From an uncultured Chloroflexia bacterium (GTDB taxonomy: Bacteria > Chloroflexota > Limnocylindria > Limnocylindrales > CSP1-4), in contig CAVVCZ010000004.1 in the NCBI GenBank assembly GCA_963746845.1, forward strand, positions 1,216,001 to 1,280,000: 64,000 nucleotides of DNA. The letters run 5' to 3'. Each line of letters begins with the position of its first letter. Positions within the stretch are counted from its first letter, which is position 1. The position numbers and the translations under genes are program-made. Shown one piece after another: positions 43,870-51,392 of this stretch. The notes under the pieces are model-generated. The model ran no database searches. It saw nothing but the letters and a program-made list of their open reading frames with translations, and was not told where the DNA came from.

Positions 43870-44137
43870 GCCGTGCACCCACCGTCGTCTTGTGGTGCCT
43901 CGCGCCTCCCGCAACGAGCGGCTCGGACCAGGCCGTTCCGCGGCACCCGACGATGATCGCTTAGTGCTGCTTCCTTCCGGACCTGACACGGTTCGCGGTT
44001 CGTCGCTGCGCGGGACCCGATCCTCAACGTCGCTCGAAGCGGCGGCAGTTCGAGGACGCAATCCTCGGGTGGGAATTCAGCCCTGCTGGAGCGGATTGCA
44101 GGTTCAGGGCACCGCTAGTTCCCCGCCTAGCACGGCG
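43870..44137 (-). ncRNA. ffs: Large bacterial SRP RNA (with Alu domain)
   Basis: TCAGGTCCGGAAGGAAGCAGC domain IV; GCCGTGCTAGGCGGGG...GGTGCACGGC termini; upstream of dnaX. Confidence 0.95.
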
Positions 44138-44170: not shown

Positions 44171-44860
44171 TCACCCGTGGCCCGACCACGGTCGCCGGTC
44201 GTGGGCGAAGAGGGCGCGGACGGGATCCACGTCGCGCAGCCGACGCAGGGACGCGTCGTAGGCCGGCCGGTCGCGGGCGCTCGTTCGACCCTCGCGGCCC
44301 GTCGATCCGGTCCACTCGTCGAGGCCGTAGACGGCCTGACCGGTCAGCACGACGGGCCCGTCGCGTTGGTCGACGATGAGCGACTGGTGACCGGGCGAAT
44401 GGCCCGGCGTGGCCAGAACCCGGATGCCCGGGACGAGCTCGTGGTCCCCGTGAGCCTCGATGTACCTGACGCCCGGTCCGTCGATCCAGTCGAGGATCGT
44501 GTAGTCACCCGCACGAGCCGTGGCGAGCTCGGCGGCCTGGACATGGATCGGGACGTTCGGGAACGACGCGTTCTGGCCGGCGTGGTCGGGATGGAGGTGG
44601 CAGTTCGCGACCAGGTCGACCTGGCCGACCCGCACCCCGGCCTCGCCGAGGACGTCGCGCATCAGTGGACCGGTCGGGTGATACCGCTCGTCGAGCTCCG
44701 GGTCGCCGAAGCCGAAGCCGGTGTCGAACAGGAGCACGCCCTCGCGGCGGCGGATCGCATAGGCGACGACGACGCCGCCCTTGCCGGCCCACGGCTCGTC
44801 AACGGCGAATCGGAACTCCCCGACATCGAGCGGGATGATCTCGGGAACGGAGCGGGCCAC
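44171..44860 (-). CDS. N-acyl homoserine lactonase-like metallo-beta-lactamase fold hydrolase
   Basis: LFDTG, CHLHPDHAG, TPGHSPGHQS, C-terminal AHD. Confidence 0.8.
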   Translation of the reverse strand: MARSVPEIIPLDVGEFRFAVDEPWAGKGGVVVAYAIRRREGVLLFDTGFGFGDPELDERYHPTGPLMRDVLGEAGVRVGQVDLVANCHLHPDHAGQNASFPNVPIHVQAAELATARAGDYTILDWIDGPGVRYIEAHGDHELVPGIRVLATPGHSPGHQSLIVDQRDGPVVLTGQAVYGLDEWTGSTGREGRTSARDRPAYDASLRRLRDVDPVRALFAHDRRPWSGHG

Positions 44861-44888
44861 GGCGGGTCCGGATCAGCTCACCGGAGAG

Positions 44889-44976
44889 TGGCGGAGAGGG
44901 CGGGATTCGAACCCGCGACGGGTTGCCCCGAACCGCATTTCCAGTGCGGCGCCATAGTCCACTAGGCGACCTCTCC
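44889..44976 (-). tRNA. tRNA-Ser(GGA)
   Basis: Loop CT-GGA-AA, long variable arm, GCCA end. Confidence 0.95.
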
Positions 44977-45029
44977 CCGAGAGAACGAAGCCGACCGGCG
45001 TGTCGCCGGCCGGCCGTGCGGTTGAGTCC

Positions 45030-45115
<86 letters not shown>

Positions 45116-45196
45116 GCCGGAGAGGATAGCAAAGGTCCTCGCCGCGGCCGACCGGACGATCGTCCCGTGGGGCGGGTTCGCATCGTGGTCGCCCGG

Positions 45197-45324
45197 CGGC
45201 CCAACGGACCGGCGGAAGCCGGCGCGCGGCGCGAGCAGTGCCGAATCGGTCGATTCTGGCCGGGTGGCGGCCGATGACGAGCCGATCGCGGCCGCGCCGC
45301 GGGATCGAGCGGTCCGTTGGGCCG
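45197..45324. repeat. Long imperfect inverted repeat
   Basis: cggcccaacggaccg (45197-45211) is the exact reverse complement of 45310-45324; further inner pairings. Confidence 0.7.
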
Positions 45325-45363
45325 TGGAGTGGCCCGCGCAGGACGCCGCAGAGGCGACCGCGG

Positions 45364-45807
45364 TCAGGCGATCGCGGTCGTGCCGGCGAGGAGCTCCATC
45401 GCCTCGTCGCGACGGATGCCGCTGACGATCTGGATGCGGCGTTGGAGATCCGGATGCTGGGCGAGCTGGATGACGGAGCCGGCGGCCCCCTCGGTCTCGT
45501 GCGGGAGCGCGAACACGAGCGCCGCCACGTCGCTCTCGAGGAGCGCGCCGACGCACATCACGCACGGCTCGACGGTCGTGAAGATCGTCGCATCGCTCAG
45601 TCGGTCCAGGCCGAGCTTCCGGGCCGCCTCGCGGAGGGCGACGATCACCGCGTGGGCGGTCGGGTCGTTGGACTCGATCACGCGATCGTGGGCGCGGGCG
45701 ACCATCGCCTCGTCGACGACGGCCACGGCCGCATTCGGGCGCTCCCCCGCGGCGATCGCGTTGCGCGCCTCGGCAAGCGCCTCGCCCATGAAGAGCTCGT
45801 AGTTCAT
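45364..45807 (-). CDS. tadA: TadA-family nucleoside deaminase lacking the catalytic Glu (HAV instead of HAE)
   Basis: FMGEALAEA...NDPTAHAV...TVEPCVMCVGA...GAAGS; synteny with tRNA-Ser-ffs-dnaX; TATAGT -10 six nt before the ATG. Confidence 0.85.
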   Translation of the reverse strand: MNYELFMGEALAEARNAIAAGERPNAAVAVVDEAMVARAHDRVIESNDPTAHAVIVALREAARKLGLDRLSDATIFTTVEPCVMCVGALLESDVAALVFALPHETEGAAGSVIQLAQHPDLQRRIQIVSGIRRDEAMELLAGTTAIA

Positions 45808-45906
45808 GGCCGGACTATACAGGCCCGGATTCGTGCTCCCGTCGCGTCGACCGTCACCATCCCGCAACCGACCGGGAACCCGGACGAGGGGTACGATGCC
45901 CCGCGC

Positions 45907-47103
45907 ATGAGCGGAACACGACGGATCGGCATCCTGACCGGCGGCGGCGACGTGCCGGGCCTCAACTCGGTCATCAAGTCGGTCGTCTATCGGGCGACCG
46001 AGATCGGCGACGAGGTCGTGGGCATCCGGCGCGGCTGGGAGGGCCTGACCCACCTCCGGTTCGATCCCGCGCCCGACCCGAACTACATCGTCCGTCTCGA
46101 CCGCGCCAACACGCGGACGATCGACCGGACCGGCGGGACCTGGCTCCACACGTCCCGGACGAACCCGAAGAAGATGCCGCCGGCGAGCCTCCCGGCGTGG
46201 ATGGATCCCGCGCGCGTGACCGCGATGACCGGGTCCGACGGGATCGTCGACCTGACGCCCGTCGTCCTCGAGAACATCGAGCGGCTCGGGCTCGACGTGC
46301 TCGTCACGATCGGTGGCGACGACACGCTCAGCTTCTCGAGGGTCCTGTTCGACGAGGGTGTGCCGCTCGTCGCGATCCCGAAGACGATGGACAACGACGT
46401 CGCGGGCACCGAGTACTGCATCGGCTTCTCGACCGCGATCACCCGGGCGAAGGAGCTGATCAACCGCCAGCGAACGACGCTCGGCAGTCACGAGCGGATC
46501 GGCGTGTTCCGCATCTTCGGCCGCGATGCGGGGTTCTCGGCGCTCTACACGGCGTACGTGACGAGCGCCCGCTGCGTGATCCCGGAGGCGCCGTACGACC
46601 TCGACCGCCTCGCCGAGATCCTGACCGCCGACCGCGACGCGAACCCGTCGAAGTACGCGGTGGTGGTGACCGCGGAGGGGGCGATCTGGAAGGGCGCCCA
46701 GATGCGCGACGTCGGCGAGGCCGACGCGTTCGGCCATCGCCACAAGGCCAACGTCGGCGAGGCGCTCGCTGTCGAGATCAAGCAACGGACCGGGATCGAG
46801 GCCGTCGCCTCCGAGCTGACCTACGACCTCCGATCCGGCGAGCCGGACGCCCTCGACGCGATGGTCGCCACGACGTTCGCCAACGTCGCGATGGACCTCG
46901 TCCGGGACGGCATCACCGGCCGGATGATGGCGATCCAGGACGGCAAGTACGCCCACACCGAGCTGCCCCATCCGGGGACGCCGGCCCGCCGCGTCGACAT
47001 CGCGGACATGTACAACGAGGAGCGCTTCCGGCCCCGCTACGAGGGCCGGCTCGGCGACCCGATGCTCCTCGTCTCGGTCGGGGGCGGCGTCGCCGTCGGC
47101 TAG
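45907..47103 (+). CDS. pfkA: 6-phosphofructokinase, probably PPi-dependent
   Basis: GILTGGGDVPGLN, GGTWLHTSR, GGDDT and PKTMDND motifs. Confidence 0.9.
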   Translation: MSGTRRIGILTGGGDVPGLNSVIKSVVYRATEIGDEVVGIRRGWEGLTHLRFDPAPDPNYIVRLDRANTRTIDRTGGTWLHTSRTNPKKMPPASLPAWMDPARVTAMTGSDGIVDLTPVVLENIERLGLDVLVTIGGDDTLSFSRVLFDEGVPLVAIPKTMDNDVAGTEYCIGFSTAITRAKELINRQRTTLGSHERIGVFRIFGRDAGFSALYTAYVTSARCVIPEAPYDLDRLAEILTADRDANPSKYAVVVTAEGAIWKGAQMRDVGEADAFGHRHKANVGEALAVEIKQRTGIEAVASELTYDLRSGEPDALDAMVATTFANVAMDLVRDGITGRMMAIQDGKYAHTELPHPGTPARRVDIADMYNEERFRPRYEGRLGDPMLLVSVGGGVAVG

Positions 47104-47121
47104 GCGAGTGCGCGAACGGCT

Positions 47122-48009
47122 CTAGCTCGGGAGCCCGGATCGCTCCCGGATGACCCTCGCGAGCGCGGACATGTCATCGGCGTCGTGGCCCTTCGCGACG
47201 AGATCGGTCTCGAAGTCCGCCGCCAGCTCGGCGACGGGCAGCTCGGCGCCCATCTGGTGGGCGAGGTCGAGCGCGATGCCGAGGTCCTTCCGGTGCAGGG
47301 CGACCTTGAACCCGAGCGGGTAGTCGTTGACCCGCATCCGCTCGCTTCGGTTGGCCAGCACCCAGCTCTGTGCCGCGCCGCCGCCGAGCGCCTCGACGAC
47401 CTGGCCGACGTCCAACCCGGCCTTGATCGCGAGGACGATCCCCTCGGCCACCCCGAGGTAGGTCCCGGCCAGGATGACCTGGTTGACGGCCTTCACGGCC
47501 TGGCCGGCGCCGCTCGGGCCGACGTGCGTGATCGTCTTGCCCATCGCGGTGAGGATCGGTCGGGCTCGCTCCACGTCCGCCGCCTCGCCGCCGCAGAAGA
47601 TCGTGAGGGTCGCCTTCTGGGCGCCCTCGCTGCCGCCCGACACCGGGGCGTCGACGAGCGAGACGCCACGCGAAGCAAGACGCGACGCGAAGTCGCGGGT
47701 CGCCGACGGCGAGATCGTCGAGCAGTCGATCACGAGCTGGCCGTCCCGGGCGCCCTCGGCGAGGCCGCCCGCGCCGAACAGGACGGACTCGACGTCCGGC
47801 GTGTCCGAGACGCAGACGACGATGGCATCCGTGGCACGCGCGACATCCGCCGGGCTGTCCGCGCGGGCGACGCCGAGGTCCTCGAGCTCCGCGGCCCGGC
47901 CGGGTGTCCGGTTCCAGGCCGTGACCGCGAACCCGGCGCCAGCCAGGTTGGCGGCCATCGCCGCGCCCATCGTCCCGAGTCCCAGGAACCCGATCCGGTC
48001 GTCAGCCAT
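47122..48009 (-). CDS. NAD(P)-dependent oxidoreductase, 3-hydroxyisobutyrate dehydrogenase family
   Basis: GFLGLGTMG, DAPVSGG, catalytic KAVNQ, KDL. Confidence 0.9.
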   Translation of the reverse strand: MADDRIGFLGLGTMGAAMAANLAGAGFAVTAWNRTPGRAAELEDLGVARADSPADVARATDAIVVCVSDTPDVESVLFGAGGLAEGARDGQLVIDCSTISPSATRDFASRLASRGVSLVDAPVSGGSEGAQKATLTIFCGGEAADVERARPILTAMGKTITHVGPSGAGQAVKAVNQVILAGTYLGVAEGIVLAIKAGLDVGQVVEALGGGAAQSWVLANRSERMRVNDYPLGFKVALHRKDLGIALDLAHQMGAELPVAELAADFETDLVAKGHDADDMSALARVIRERSGLPS

Positions 48010-48067
48010 GTGCTCCTCGCTGCTACCCTCGCGTCAATTCTGACGGACTCACGGAGGTTCCGGATCG

Positions 48068-48451
48068 ATGCCGCTCATCGCCCAGCTCGCCGCGCTGCTC
48101 GGGGCGGCGATCCACGTCTGGTTCTTCGTCCTGGAGAGCCTCCTCTTCGGGCGACCAGGCGTGGCGGCGCGGTTCGGGCTCCGGACCGACGAGCAGATCG
48201 CCGTGGTCCGGCCGATGGCCTTCAACCAGGGCTTCTACAACCTGTTCCTGGCGGTCGGGATCGCGGCGGGCATCGCCCAGATCGCCGCGGGCGAGGAGGT
48301 CGCCGGTCGGGCGATCGTCCTGTTCTGCTGCGCCTGCATGGTCGGTGCGGGGATCGTCCTGTTCGCGACGAGCCGGCGGTTCCTCCAGGCGTCGATCGTC
48401 CAGGCGCTCCCGCCGCTGGTCGCGATCCTCGCGACGTTCCTCATCCACTGA
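48068..48451 (+). CDS. DUF1304-like membrane protein
   Basis: IHVWFFVLES...AFNQGFYNLFLA...Q..PP pattern; 4 TM helices. Confidence 0.8.
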   Translation: MPLIAQLAALLGAAIHVWFFVLESLLFGRPGVAARFGLRTDEQIAVVRPMAFNQGFYNLFLAVGIAAGIAQIAAGEEVAGRAIVLFCCACMVGAGIVLFATSRRFLQASIVQALPPLVAILATFLIH

Positions 48452-49301
48452 CGGCGGCGTCGGCGCCGCTCGCGACCGGCCGTCGTCGACCGGCGAGGAA
48501 CCAGGTCCGGATCTCGCCCTTGCCCTTGAGGGCGATCGTTCCGCGCGTCTCGAGCATGTAATCGTCCCCGAGGATCTCGGCGACGGCGTCCGAGACGTGG
48601 ATGCGGCCCGGCTGCGAGGTCGACTCGAGACGGCTGGCGACGTTCACCGTGTCGCCCCAGACGTCGAAGGCGAAACGGCGAGACCCGATCACCCCGGACA
48701 CGACGGGTCCGACCGCCACCCCGATCCGGACCTGCCAGTCCGAGGCGGACGCGGCGACGGCGTCGGCCATCGCGAGCGCGAGGTCGGCGGCCGCGCGGAC
48801 GGAGGCCGACGGATCCTCCCCGTCGACCGGAGCCAGACCGGCGACCGCGAGATAGGCGTCCCCGATGGTCTTGATCGTCTCGACGCCGAGGTGCTCGGCG
48901 GCCGCGTCGAACGACGCGAAGAGGGAGCCCAGCCGCTCGACAAGCTCGACGACCGGCAGCCGCCCCGCGATCGCGGTGAACCCGACGATGTCGCAGAACA
49001 CGACGGCGACGTGGTCGTGACGGTCGGCGATCTGGCGCTCGCCCGCATTCAGCCGATCCACGATCCGCCGCGGCAGCACGTTGAGCAGGAGCTCGATCGA
49101 GCGGGCCTGCTCATTCGCGAGCTCCACGCGGAGCCGATCGAGAAGGCGGGAGTTCGTGTCGCGGATGTCCTCGAGCTGGCGCAGCGTCAGCTCGAGTCGT
49201 TCTGCCCGCCGCGTTTGCCGGATGACCTCCTTGCGCAGCTCCTCGGCCGACGGCGGCGGCGCCTCGGATGCGGCACCGGAGCCCGCGTCGGCGTCGGTCA
49301 C
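48441..49301 (-). CDS. Class III adenylate cyclase with N-terminal coiled coil
   Basis: VFCDIVGFT, IKTIGDAYL, FDVWGDTVNVASRLES, LKGKG; GTG start overlaps the FIST gene stop (GTGA). Confidence 0.92.
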   Translation of the reverse strand: MTDADAGSGAASEAPPPSAEELRKEVIRQTRRAERLELTLRQLEDIRDTNSRLLDRLRVELANEQARSIELLLNVLPRRIVDRLNAGERQIADRHDHVAVVFCDIVGFTAIAGRLPVVELVERLGSLFASFDAAAEHLGVETIKTIGDAYLAVAGLAPVDGEDPSASVRAAADLALAMADAVAASASDWQVRIGVAVGPVVSGVIGSRRFAFDVWGDTVNVASRLESTSQPGRIHVSDAVAEILGDDYMLETRGTIALKGKGEIRTWFLAGRRRPVASGADAAVSG

Positions 49302-50455
49302 GTCCCGAGCAGCAGCGCGACGAAGGTCTCGTTGAGGAACCGCGGGTCGCGATCCGGCCCGATCGGACCGATCTCGCCGGTGCAGTACATCCCGGCGAAG
49401 GGCAGATCCGGCAGCGCGGCCCGGGTCAGCTCGGTCTCGCGACCGGTCCGCGAGCCGAGCAGGTATTTCCGGACCATGCACGAGAACACGAGCGCCGCCT
49501 CCGGCGGACCCTCGCCCGGAAAGGTCTCGGCGGCCCGCGCCAACGCGCCGGCCGTTCCGCGAAGAAGGGCCTCGGTGTTCGCGGTGGTCAGCTGGATGCC
49601 GGATCCCACCGGCACGGAGCCGATGATCGAGATCGTCCCGGCCGCCTCGTCCGAGCGGATGGCCACGCGGAGGTAGGGCTCGTCGCTCCCCGGCTCGTAG
49701 ATCGCCATCGGGTTCCCGAACGAGGCCGGTCCGATCGCATCGAGGTAGCGACTGACGAACTCCAGGGCCGGGCGGCCGTCGATCTCGCAGATCAGATTGC
49801 GCTCGGATGCGGTCACGACGCCGCGCGACCCGATCGCCTCCCAACCGGTCCCGATCGCGACGGAGTGGCGCAGCGGCCCGGAGAACAGGACGAGGGCGAT
49901 ACCGTCCTCGGTCAGGGCATCGCCGACGAACTGGTAGGTCGGGGTGATCAGGCCGAGCTCGCTCCGCGCCGACCCACCGCCGATGACCGTGACACCGGCC
50001 GGGAGGATCGATCGGATCGTTCGGATCATGGCCGCCGGGTCGGTCGACGCGGCATTGGCCAGCACGATGCACAGTCGTGGCTCGCGGGTCACCCCCACGA
50101 GCGCCGCGTCCAGCGCATCGCGACAGGCGCGGTCCGTGTCGGTCCCGAGACCGGCGCCGAGGCCGGCGGTGATGTCGATCTCATCGGAGGCGAACAAGGC
50201 GAGCGTGACCGAGTCCTCGCGATATCCGACGACGTTCGAGACCTCGGCTGCCGACGTCGAACCGGCGATCGTCGCGGTCGGGAACGCGGCCTTGACGGTG
50301 GCGAGGATCGAGGGGTCGAAGCTCTCGAACGACGCCACGAGTAGGCCGGCCTGGGGCCGGGCGTCGCCGAGGCGCTCCCGGCACTCCGCGATGACCTGGG
50401 CGATCGCATCCGCGGCGTCGACGTCGTCGCTGTGACCCACCGCCATCGTCAGCAT
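49298..50455 (-). CDS. FIST domain signal transduction protein (NosP-like)
   Basis: AGSTSAAEV, IGGGSA, GWEAIG, EIDGRPAL, FSC, GMYCTGEIGP...LNET: FIST_N plus FIST_C pattern. Confidence 0.88.
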   Translation of the reverse strand: MLTMAVGHSDDVDAADAIAQVIAECRERLGDARPQAGLLVASFESFDPSILATVKAAFPTATIAGSTSAAEVSNVVGYREDSVTLALFASDEIDITAGLGAGLGTDTDRACRDALDAALVGVTREPRLCIVLANAASTDPAAMIRTIRSILPAGVTVIGGGSARSELGLITPTYQFVGDALTEDGIALVLFSGPLRHSVAIGTGWEAIGSRGVVTASERNLICEIDGRPALEFVSRYLDAIGPASFGNPMAIYEPGSDEPYLRVAIRSDEAAGTISIIGSVPVGSGIQLTTANTEALLRGTAGALARAAETFPGEGPPEAALVFSCMVRKYLLGSRTGRETELTRAALPDLPFAGMYCTGEIGPIGPDRDPRFLNETFVALLLGT

Positions 50456-50587
50456 CGGTCGGGCACCTCACGACTCGCTCGCCCGGTCAGCCCTCGGACA
50501 CGTCGATCCACCGCGCCACCATAGCGCGGCGCGGATCGGAGGGTGATTCGGCGATCCGTCGGCGCGGTCCGGCGCCGACCGCCGGGA

Positions 50588-50983
50588 TCAGTCGGTGGCG
50601 CCTGCCACCTCGAGCCGGCCCCGCCAGCAGTCGGTCGTCACGCCGTCGTGGGCGCACTGGATCTCGCTGTAGCTGCCGGTGACCGGCCGGCCCTTGCCCC
50701 AGCCGTCGATGATGACGCCGCTGATCACCGCGTTGAGACCGGTCTGCTCGACATGGACGAGCGCGGTGAACTCGCGCTGGGAGCCGTGGAAGCCATAGAT
50801 TGCCTCGACGGTCGTCGTGGGGCCCGGGTTCATGTCCAGGACCTTGCCCCGGTAGGTTCCCTCGCCGACGGCGCCGCCGACGGTGCCCGCCATCTCGGGA
50901 CCCTCGCCGACCATCCACTTCGTGAACGTGGCGGCACCCGTGCCGACGGGGCTGATGGTGGGCTCGCTGACGATGGTGTCCAT
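50588..50983 (-). CDS. Hypothetical protein (131 aa, beta-rich)
   Basis: GGAAGG SD before ATG at 50983; GC3-biased codons. Confidence 0.65.
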   Translation of the reverse strand: MDTIVSEPTISPVGTGAATFTKWMVGEGPEMAGTVGGAVGEGTYRGKVLDMNPGPTTTVEAIYGFHGSQREFTALVHVEQTGLNAVISGVIIDGWGKGRPVTGSYSEIQCAHDGVTTDCWRGRLEVAGATD

Positions 50984-51125
50984 CGCAGATCCTTCCGACC
51001 ACGGCGTGGGCGGCATCCGGAACGGACGTCTGCGCCGAGCCGTGGCCACCACCGTACACCCGGGTCGTCGTCCGTTCGTCTCGCGCGCGGTGACGCGGCA
51101 GATCGGCAGGGTGAACGGGCGGTGC

Positions 51126-51201
51126 TGGCGCGCCCGGCGGGACTCGAACCCACGACCTTCAGGTCCGCAACCTGACGCTCTATCCACTGAGCTACGGGCG
51201 C
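51126..51201 (-). tRNA. tRNA-Arg with anticodon GCG
   Basis: GCGCCCGTAGCTCAGTGGATAGAGCG-TCAGG-TTGCGGA-CCTGA...GCCA; A20 Arg identity element; anticodon at 51168-51166. Confidence 0.95.

Positions 51202-51300: not shown

Positions 51301-51392
<92 letters not shown>

Follow-up and report, generated by a model that had tools for sequence, protein, structure and literature searches.

Introduction

TadA is seen as a near-universal, single-purpose bacterial enzyme, and the Mollicutes that do without inosine at tRNA position 34 also drop its gene. Part of the account by Yokobori et al. (2013; PMC3711424) describes how these bacteria decode the CGN codons without inosine: the arginine anticodon ACG has become GCG, a UCG species is present, and tadA itself is lost. 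Among eukaryotes, Tad3/ADAT3 is a TadA-type subunit that lacks the catalytic glutamate, as one section of PMC3239186 sets out. Here we describe a tadA-derived gene in a 64,000-nucleotide stretch of DNA (the whole of which we call the window) from an uncultured bacterium of the class Limnocylindria in the Chloroflexota. Its product keeps the zinc ligands of TadA and carries valine in place of the catalytic glutamate, and no tRNA-Arg(ACG) was found in the genome. That an abundant, free-living group lost both the substrate and the catalytic residue and yet kept the protein across two families, under purifying selection, implies a function other than deamination. In our judgement the protein is probably a retained pseudo-deaminase, that is, a tadA orthologue with a non-catalytic binding role at a remodelled cleft and dimer surface, and its ligand is perhaps not RNA. 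Outside the per-genome tadA tables that supplement PMC3711424 and PMC6063277, we found no report in the literature of a bacterial TadA that is conserved though catalytically dead, and none of tRNA decoding in the Limnocylindria.

The window's genome (G000) comprises 3.56 Mb in 12 contigs, is 92.4% complete and has a base composition of 71.2% G+C. For its relatives within the class we use family handles: f1 is the window's own family, f2 a family of the same order with genomes of ~1.1 Mb, and f3, f4 and f5 are further families.

Results

A zinc-site TadA homologue without the catalytic glutamate

The gene encodes a protein of 147 residues (minus strand; start ATG at 45807..45805, stop TGA at 45366..45364) in which the motifs run in the order ...NDPTAHAVIVALR...EPCVMC.... 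The protein matched Pfam PF00383 with 74.8 bits and PF14437 with 87.2 bits, and its top NCBIfam model, the TadA equivalog NF008113, gave 120.2 bits, which is under the cut-off of 150. On that model the f1 and f4 orthologues scored ~87–128 bits, and the f3/f5 proteins that read HAE at the active site ~129–157 bits. The top sequence matches among solved structures were E. coli TadA and engineered forms of it, and we used E. coli TadA (1z3a) as alignment reference (E. coli number = query + 5). The aligned pairs are H52/H57, A53/A58, V54/E59, C82/C87 and C85/C90: as the initial annotation of this DNA had claimed, H52, C82 and C85 still provide the zinc ligands and the catalytic Glu is Val. The further motif changes that it listed are likewise all present in the 1z3a alignment. 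ERPNAAV stands in place of E. coli EVPVGAV, HDR in place of WNR and FALPHETEGAAGS in place of FGARDAKTGAAGS; the C-terminus is shortened, the window protein ending 6 residues past the aligned part where the E. coli chain is ~20 residues longer. An FF motif was not found at the C-terminus of the window protein, and several f3 HAE proteins read LLSGFFA.

We assembled 50 orthologues from their loci: 31 from f1 (20 within the genus, G000 included, and 11 from other f1 genera) and 19 from f4. Position 54 is Val in 49 of these, Leu in 1 and Glu in 0/50, while H52, E80-P81-C82, M84 and C85 are the same in 50/50 and belong to a total of 39 invariant positions. Part of PMC3239186 gives as TadA family features a conserved strand-2 Asn, a basic residue that follows strand 4 and, at the C-terminus, a helix that bears conserved E and F and touches the anticodon loop. 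The strand-2 Asn (E. coli N46) falls at query position 41, which is Asn in 0/50 orthologues (D 44, R 4, Q 2); the basic residue we map, by inference, to R107/K110, and the K110 position is T in the window protein and K in 1/50 orthologues. Of the features of the TadA-Tad2 clade (Iyer et al. 2011), the protein has the zinc ligands and the descent, and it lacks the catalytic Glu, an equivalog-level score, the strand-2 Asn, the basic and C-terminal features and an A34 substrate tRNA. According to part of PMC6506237, E59A inactivates E. coli TadA, and by analogy the window protein would be catalytically inactive. Near-identical proteins, with source names of Candidatus Limnocylindrales or Chloroflexota that agree with the Limnocylindria origin surmised in the initial annotation, are often annotated 'tRNA(adenine34) deaminase', a label that is probably wrong for this clade.

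The Glu-less form is conserved and under purifying selection in two families

Within the genus the gene is present in 19/24 other genomes, and with G000 included 20/20 orthologues read HAV at positions 52–54 and have no stops. All 31 f1 orthologues are HAV and intact; the 19 from f4 are also all intact, 18 with HAV and 1 with HAL. No internal stop occurs in any of the 50, whose identity to the window protein spans 54–96%. In a family search across the class, the 30 top-ranking TadA loci all read HAE (30/30), with canonical DVP[IV]GAV, HN and PCxMCAG; 28 are from f3, 1 from f5, and 1 lies on a 3.4-kb contig binned in an f4 genome, G088. Metagenomes gave a similar division by relatedness: the 120 closest proteins retrieved through a word index comprise 117 HAV and 3 HAI, and among 149 representatives from an exhaustive search, a 150th (P0089) having been counted in the first set, 35 are HAV, nearly all at >= ~50% identity to the query, and 87 are HAE, nearly all at <= ~50%. 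Among 301 sampled Chloroflexota genomes, a protein of the clade's type (E <= 1e-36) was found only in f1 (14/15, plus G000) and f4 (15/15), and in none of the 268 genomes of other families or the 2 f2 genomes of that sample.

We ruled out a sequencing or assembly error at Val54, because Val is encoded in genome after genome and Glu is absent from every orthologue read. Inspection of reads over the Val codon, which had been suggested from the outset, was informative in part: contigs of four public runs carried no A>T class change on the gene, but the 100%-identical DNA contigs listed miss codon 54 itself, so that conservation across genomes is the stronger evidence against error. The public runs with the sequence are soil metagenomes, with a small share of the sampled words and the stretch covered in part; we drew no conclusion from them about absence or habitat.

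The ratio of nonsynonymous to synonymous substitution rates (dN/dS; medians of pairwise Nei-Gojobori values) was 0.161 for f1 (210 pairs) and 0.243 for f4 (170 usable pairs), or 0.147 and 0.231 when only the TadA-aligned core was compared. For the active-type HAE TadA of f3/f5 it was 0.282 (405 pairs). On these approximate figures, the Glu-less gene is at least as constrained as its parent enzyme. A ratio below 1, proposed initially as a check on the gene's retention, is thus what both families give, and the opposite outcome, of sporadic HAV orthologues in neutral decay, is contradicted by the 50/50 intact orthologues and the low dN/dS.

Two groups of metagenome proteins lie apart from these counts. 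P0211 was rejected as an HAE member of the HAV clade: its N-terminal half is RibD-like with HAE and its C-terminal half near-identical to f1 HAV proteins, and this 1.5-kb metagenome contig is probably an assembly chimera, a natural recombinant being less likely; it was left uncounted. P0194, P0204 and P0205 are Glu-less TadA-like proteins from outside the Limnocylindria clade (HAV, HPI and HSI). P0194 and P0204 were placed among HAE TadAs in the tree described below, and Glu-less TadA homologues may have arisen more than once.

Arginine decoding without an A34 tRNA

The tRNA-Arg(GCG) of the window, with loop TT-GCG-GA and following tRNA-Ser(GCT), had been noticed in the initial annotation and was confirmed by ARAGORN and Rfam. 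The arginine anticodons among 60 ARAGORN calls in G000 are GCG, CCG, UCG, CCU and UCU; neither ACG nor any other A34 anticodon is among these calls, in a genome that is 92.4% complete. A second ARAGORN 'tRNA-Arg(gcg)' of 100 nt, on contig C3, had no Rfam match at E <= 1 and was dropped. In 1,268 long, high-GC3 open reading frames (ORFs) of G000, arginine is encoded by CGC (39.0%), CGG (45.4%), CGU (6.2%), CGA (6.6%), AGA (0.3%) and AGG (2.4%). CGC and CGG together make up 84% of arginine codons, and G34 is the Watson-Crick partner of a dominant codon, CGC.

We surveyed the relatives with anticodon-arm patterns, which replaced a DNA query at E <= 1e-12 that was too strict and reached 14 f3 genomes only. 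The ACG pattern was absent from f1 (0/137), G000, f2 (0/16) and f4 (0/153), and present in 58/92 f3 genomes, a lower bound since the strict pattern missed G047, which a looser one recovered, and in 1/2 f5 genomes. The GCG pattern was found in G000 and in 39/44 genomes of f1, 6/6 of f2, 46/50 of f4, 2/49 of f3 and 0/1 of f5. The 0/137 and 0/153 for f1 and f4 also cover the possible gap that the 92.4% completeness of G000 might leave. Across the class, HAV or HAL goes with tRNA-Arg(GCG) and HAE with tRNA-Arg(ACG). This is the pattern that the initial annotation had anticipated, in the presence of Arg-GCG and Arg-TCG without Arg-ACG in the genome, in the lack of an ACG match among its f1 and f4 relatives and, at the scale of f1/f4 versus f3, in the co-occurrence of HAV with GCG.

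ARAGORN, run at the best DNA matches to the window tRNA, placed tRNA-Ser(GCT) beside tRNA-Arg(GCG) in 30/30 loci (28 from f1 including G000, 1 from f2, and G137), and the f4 regions carry the same pair; it also confirmed ACG at 15/15 loci. The f3 tRNA-Arg(ACG), whose role the window's tRNA-Arg(GCG) fills, mostly has the classic loop CUACGAA, and f3 genomes have the UCG and CCG species as well.

The change from A34 to G34 is accompanied by C32 to U32 and A37 to G37 (CUACGAA to UUGCGGA) in f1, f2, f4 and an f3 genome, G089, which suggests that the anticodon loop and the wobble base are adapted to each other. In G089 (86% complete; L152, G089:C21, 2627-2785), the tRNA-Arg(GCG) with loop UUGCGGA lies directly beside tRNA-Arg(UCG), an f3-type arrangement in which relatives carry tRNA-Arg(ACG). 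No TadA was found in this genome at its 86% completeness, and G089 may represent a second, independent switch from ACG to GCG, with loss of tadA.

The predicted fold is retained and the contact surface remodelled

AlphaFold2, given an alignment of 115 rows, returned a model with pLDDT 96.1 and pTM 0.90, in which a single C-terminal helix spans residues 133–144 and the chain then ends. The top Foldseek matches were the TadA structures 1wwr, 2b3j and 1z3a (TM 0.95, rmsd 1.0–1.1 Å), with ADAT2/ADAT3 lower. A two-copy model, with a partner pLDDT of 92, reached an ipSAE of 0.81, and the highest value among 3 controls was 0.00; the two-copy runs showed 100% contact agreement, and the interface is formed along the helices carrying H52 and C82/C85. 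The pass mark is reached by 20/30 proteins solved as pairs and by 1/23 solved as single chains. The protein is thus probably a homodimer, as modelled, with the proviso that the pass may reflect mere likeness because TadA dimers have already been solved.

When 52 Glu-less sequences were compared with 63 HAE sequences, along with the 50 locus-derived orthologues, the changes common to the whole clade were E59 to V/L, N46 to D/R/Q and Y81 to F, with K110 and N127 becoming variable (E. coli numbering). Profile matches end at ~140–147 of 165 in the Glu-less clade versus 152–161 in HAE proteins. At other positions f4 retains G31, D108, H128 and R74, and R98 in 9/19, and f1 has A31, N/H108, R128 and D98. 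We take the changed positions to be anticodon-loop contacts, from the S. aureus TadA-RNA structure, and the ancestral substrate-contact surface looks as if it had been lost stepwise. These positions are partly backed by a part of PMC3711424 that names the TadA region between Lys111 and Phe149, and by the family features given in PMC3239186. Residues conserved specifically in the clade include an invariant N2-Y3-E4-L5. Median isoelectric points (pI) are 5.1 in f1 and 5.4 in f4, with a net charge of -6, as compared with 7.8 and +1 for full-length HAE TadAs. With the basic C-terminal tail lost, tRNA-contact positions replaced and the pI acidic, an RNA-binding role becomes less obvious.

The same residues bear on whether the protein might still be an enzyme, either with another residue, such as Asp41 at the E. 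coli Asn46 position, acting as proton shuttle, or with its zinc site turned to a new reaction or substrate. The zinc ligands and EPCxMC, unchanged in 50/50 orthologues, would fit such an enzyme, as would purifying selection as strong as on active TadA and cleft changes that are conserved per family, for example D41 and, in f1, D93 and R123. Position 54, however, is always hydrophobic (V 49, L 1; V/I in the 120 closest metagenome proteins), position 41 is Asp in 31/31 f1 orthologues but varies in f4 (D 13, R 4, Q 2), G000 has no A34 tRNA, and the E59A change is enough to abolish E. coli TadA activity. To our knowledge there is no Glu-less active member of the deaminase fold, and we consider continued catalysis improbable.

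No second deaminase gene found in the genome

It had also been proposed that the protein partners another deaminase in the manner of ADAT2/3, an idea that G000 fails to bear out. Neither PF00383 nor NF008113 detected a second deaminase-fold gene in this genome, two clade-specific hidden Markov models run with filters off against 29,488 six-frame ORFs of G000 matched the window gene only, and PF00383 detected no RibD-type deaminase domain at 92% completeness. A hidden tRNA-Arg(ACG) or second tadA in G000 was sought by tRNA calls, profiles and patterns and not found. Some f3 genomes have weak matches of 41–53 bits in long frames, which may be RibD.

A dead subunit that supplies substrate binding to an active paralogue would have its precedent in the Glu-to-Val change of Tad3/ADAT3, as described in part of PMC3239186; ADAT3 chains are also among the sequence and fold matches, and some f1/f4 genomes have extra, weaker deaminase-fold matches of 60–90 bits. 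But most f1 genomes give a single match, the protein is one domain of 147 residues without the long N-terminal domain of ADAT3, and such a heterodimer is unsupported because G000 has one deaminase-fold gene only and no A34 tRNA to edit. We regard this reading as very unlikely.

Locus and descent of the gene

Downstream of the tadA-like gene, the f1 and f4 loci invariably have tRNA-Ser(CGA) and then tRNA-Ser(GGA) (Table 1), and an HAE tadA also lies upstream of tRNA-Ser(CGA) at three loci (L053, L065 and L067). By position and phylogeny, and with TadA as its best family and structure match, the window gene descends from tadA. A quick IQ-TREE analysis of 95 proteins joined the f1 and f4 proteins in one group (SH-aLRT 99; stem 0.42 substitutions per site) and placed the f3/f5 HAE proteins in a separate group (99) among other bacterial TadAs. 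In f2, only a dehydrogenase gene and one small ORF lie in the syntenic stretch from tRNA-Arg(GCG) to the tRNA-Ser pair, where no remnant of tadA was seen. The most economical account is one change in the ancestor shared by f1, f2 and f4, with the gene lost afterwards in the streamlined f2. We found no conserved upstream neighbour that could hint at function: the divergent gene encodes PFK at the f1 loci but a PMT-family glycosyltransferase at those of f4.

With the two tRNA-Ser genes as the sole conserved neighbours, and with f2 having dropped the gene and kept both tRNAs, it could be argued that the gene is in neutral decay or survives only as cis-acting DNA, as promoter and leader of the tRNA-Ser genes, or that its Val is an assembly error. 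This is scarcely credible in view of 50/50 intact orthologues at 54–96% identity in two families, dN/dS of 0.16–0.24 and 39 invariant residues; error in particular is excluded by the recurrence of Val from genome to genome.

Further downstream of the tadA-like gene lies the 5' part of a large bacterial signal recognition particle RNA (44000-44135, minus strand, 74.1 bits, clipped by the search boundary), and between it and the tRNA-Ser pair a metallo-beta-lactamase-fold gene (44171-44860). B. subtilis has a similar tadA-scr order.

Table 1. Features of the window, in order of position
Feature	Position	Strand	Basis
tRNA-Ser(GGA), second of conserved downstream pair	44889..44976	-	ARAGORN + Rfam; f1/f4 loci
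tRNA-Ser(CGA), directly downstream of tadA-like gene	45030..45115	-	ARAGORN + Rfam; f1/f4 loci
tadA-derived gene, 147-aa TadA-fold protein	45364..45807	-	ORF, Pfam, NCBIfam, alignment, AlphaFold2, Foldseek
Codon 54, GTG (Val), aligned to E. coli TadA Glu59	45646..45648	-	Sequence + alignment
-10-like hexamer TATAGT, 6 nt before ATG	45814..45819	-	Sequence; f1 comparison
tRNA-Arg(GCG), loop UUGCGGA	51126..51201	-	ARAGORN; Rfam tRNA 71.5 bits
tRNA-Ser(GCT), directly upstream of tRNA-Arg(GCG)	51301..51392	-	ARAGORN

A conserved promoter-like box

The TATAGT that the initial annotation had seen six nt upstream of the ATG is present (Table 1), and a TANNNT hexamer ends 6–8 nt before the ATG in 21/21 f1 orthologues (TATAGT, TATCAT, TATGAT, TATCGT and others). 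No Shine-Dalgarno-like motif was found in the last 20 nt before the ATG of these 21. Judging from the conserved -10 box, the f1 mRNA is likely leaderless, as had been suggested from the window alone. In f4, a conserved TAGACT box lies 6–9 nt before the start in 9/19 orthologues, of which 8 start with GTG; in the remaining 10 it lies 29–54 nt upstream, and 9 of those 10 have a Shine-Dalgarno-like motif. A generic sigma-70 -35/-10 and terminator scan of 44800..46000 returned 0 sites.

Discussion

The retained pseudo-deaminase that we favour would have arisen as follows. In a common ancestor of f1 and f4, the tadA orthologue would have lost its substrate and its chemistry: tRNA-Arg(ACG) gave way to tRNA-Arg(GCG), which together with the existing UCG and CCG species can read the four CGN codons free of inosine, the proton-shuttle Glu was replaced by Val, and the basic tail at the C-terminus disappeared along with several positions of tRNA contact. 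The gene was nevertheless kept: it encodes an acidic, zinc-site protein of the TadA fold, with a conserved promoter, upstream of two tRNA-Ser genes and under purifying selection. The earlier proposal that this lineage decodes CGN inosine-free and yet keeps an intact pseudo-deaminase is supported at lineage scale.

Several points weigh against this interpretation. Catalytic inactivity is inferred from a single residue. The protein is dispensable in some relatives, since f2 has tRNA-Arg(GCG) and no tadA-like gene (0/16 and 0/6 genomes). The gene was not found in 5/44 f1 genomes of 90–97% completeness. The co-distribution of residue and anticodon is not a statistical correlation, because it reflects one evolutionary event, or perhaps two with G089. 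No ACG pattern was matched in 34/92 f3 genomes, of which G047 at least is a pattern miss; these are not to be counted as absences, because the metagenome-assembled genomes are incomplete and the strict pattern misses true ACG genes. One f3 genome, G137 (76% complete), has HAE together with both ACG and GCG, and mis-binning is probable here because the contig with GCG shares 99% identity with the f1 tRNA gene of the window. The f4 genome G088 holds both an HAV copy (L122, G088:C56) and an HAE copy (L053, G088:C60). The pairwise dN/dS is approximate at 71% G+C, and the acidic pI and charge speak against RNA binding in the ancestral manner. As to expression, a soil metatranscriptome contains a 252-nt contig over 45524..45771 at 89% identity, which is a relative's, could be carried-over DNA and offers at best a weak hint that the relative's gene is transcribed.

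The HAE tadA of G088 scores 184.5 bits and is followed by tRNA-Ser(CGA) on its 3.4-kb contig; it is either on a contaminant contig or from a rare genome with both forms.

A more far-reaching possibility, which we rate as doubtful though worth stating, is that TadA has a second, deamination-independent function, exerted on the anticodon loop or on another RNA or protein through the zinc cleft of the dimer, and that this function is seen here in isolation. Once tRNA-Arg(GCG) had taken over, the protein would then have been retuned to serve solely as a reader or regulator without catalysis. If true, this would be the first bacterial counterpart of an ADAT3-type pseudo-deaminase, of independent origin and without an active partner.

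Returning to the retained pseudo-deaminase, the lineage offers a natural experiment in the rewiring of CGN decoding from ACG to GCG, with UCG and CCG already in place in f3-type genomes. It also offers a graded series, from the active enzyme (f3/f5) through a Glu-less form with some contacts (f4) and a more diverged one (f1) to complete loss (f2).

Among known systems, the protein is closest in fold to bacterial TadA (1z3a of E. coli, 2b3j of S. aureus and 1wwr of A. aeolicus; TM 0.95, 33–40% identity). It shares with TadA the zinc ligands, the EPCxMC motif, a predicted homodimer and a site upstream of tRNA-Ser(CGA) like that of HAE tadA. Unlike TadA, it has Val for Glu59, replacements of Asn46, Lys110 and Asn127 throughout the clade and of Gly31, Arg98, Asp108 and His128 also in f1, a truncated C-terminal helix, an acidic character, a score under the NCBIfam cut-off and no tRNA-Arg(ACG) in its genome. 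With Tad3/ADAT3 it has in common a TadA-derived domain with a zinc site, a Glu-to-Val change in HxE, and selection on the result, and it provides a bacterial parallel to the origin of that pseudo-subunit. The loss of Glu is independent of that in ADAT3, as the window protein clusters with the bacterial TadA of its own class. Unlike ADAT3, it has no active paralogue, no extra domain and no inosine-34 system in its lineage. The N-terminal region of ADAT3 binds tRNA; this region is ~175 residues long and precedes the deaminase-like domain, the match to 7nz7_B lying at 176–313 of 317. The Mollicutes, finally, show the same rewiring from ACG to GCG, and f2 resembles them in having lost tadA too, whereas f1 and f4 keep the gene intact without its catalytic residue and live freely in soil and freshwater, with 71% G+C, rather than as reduced parasites.

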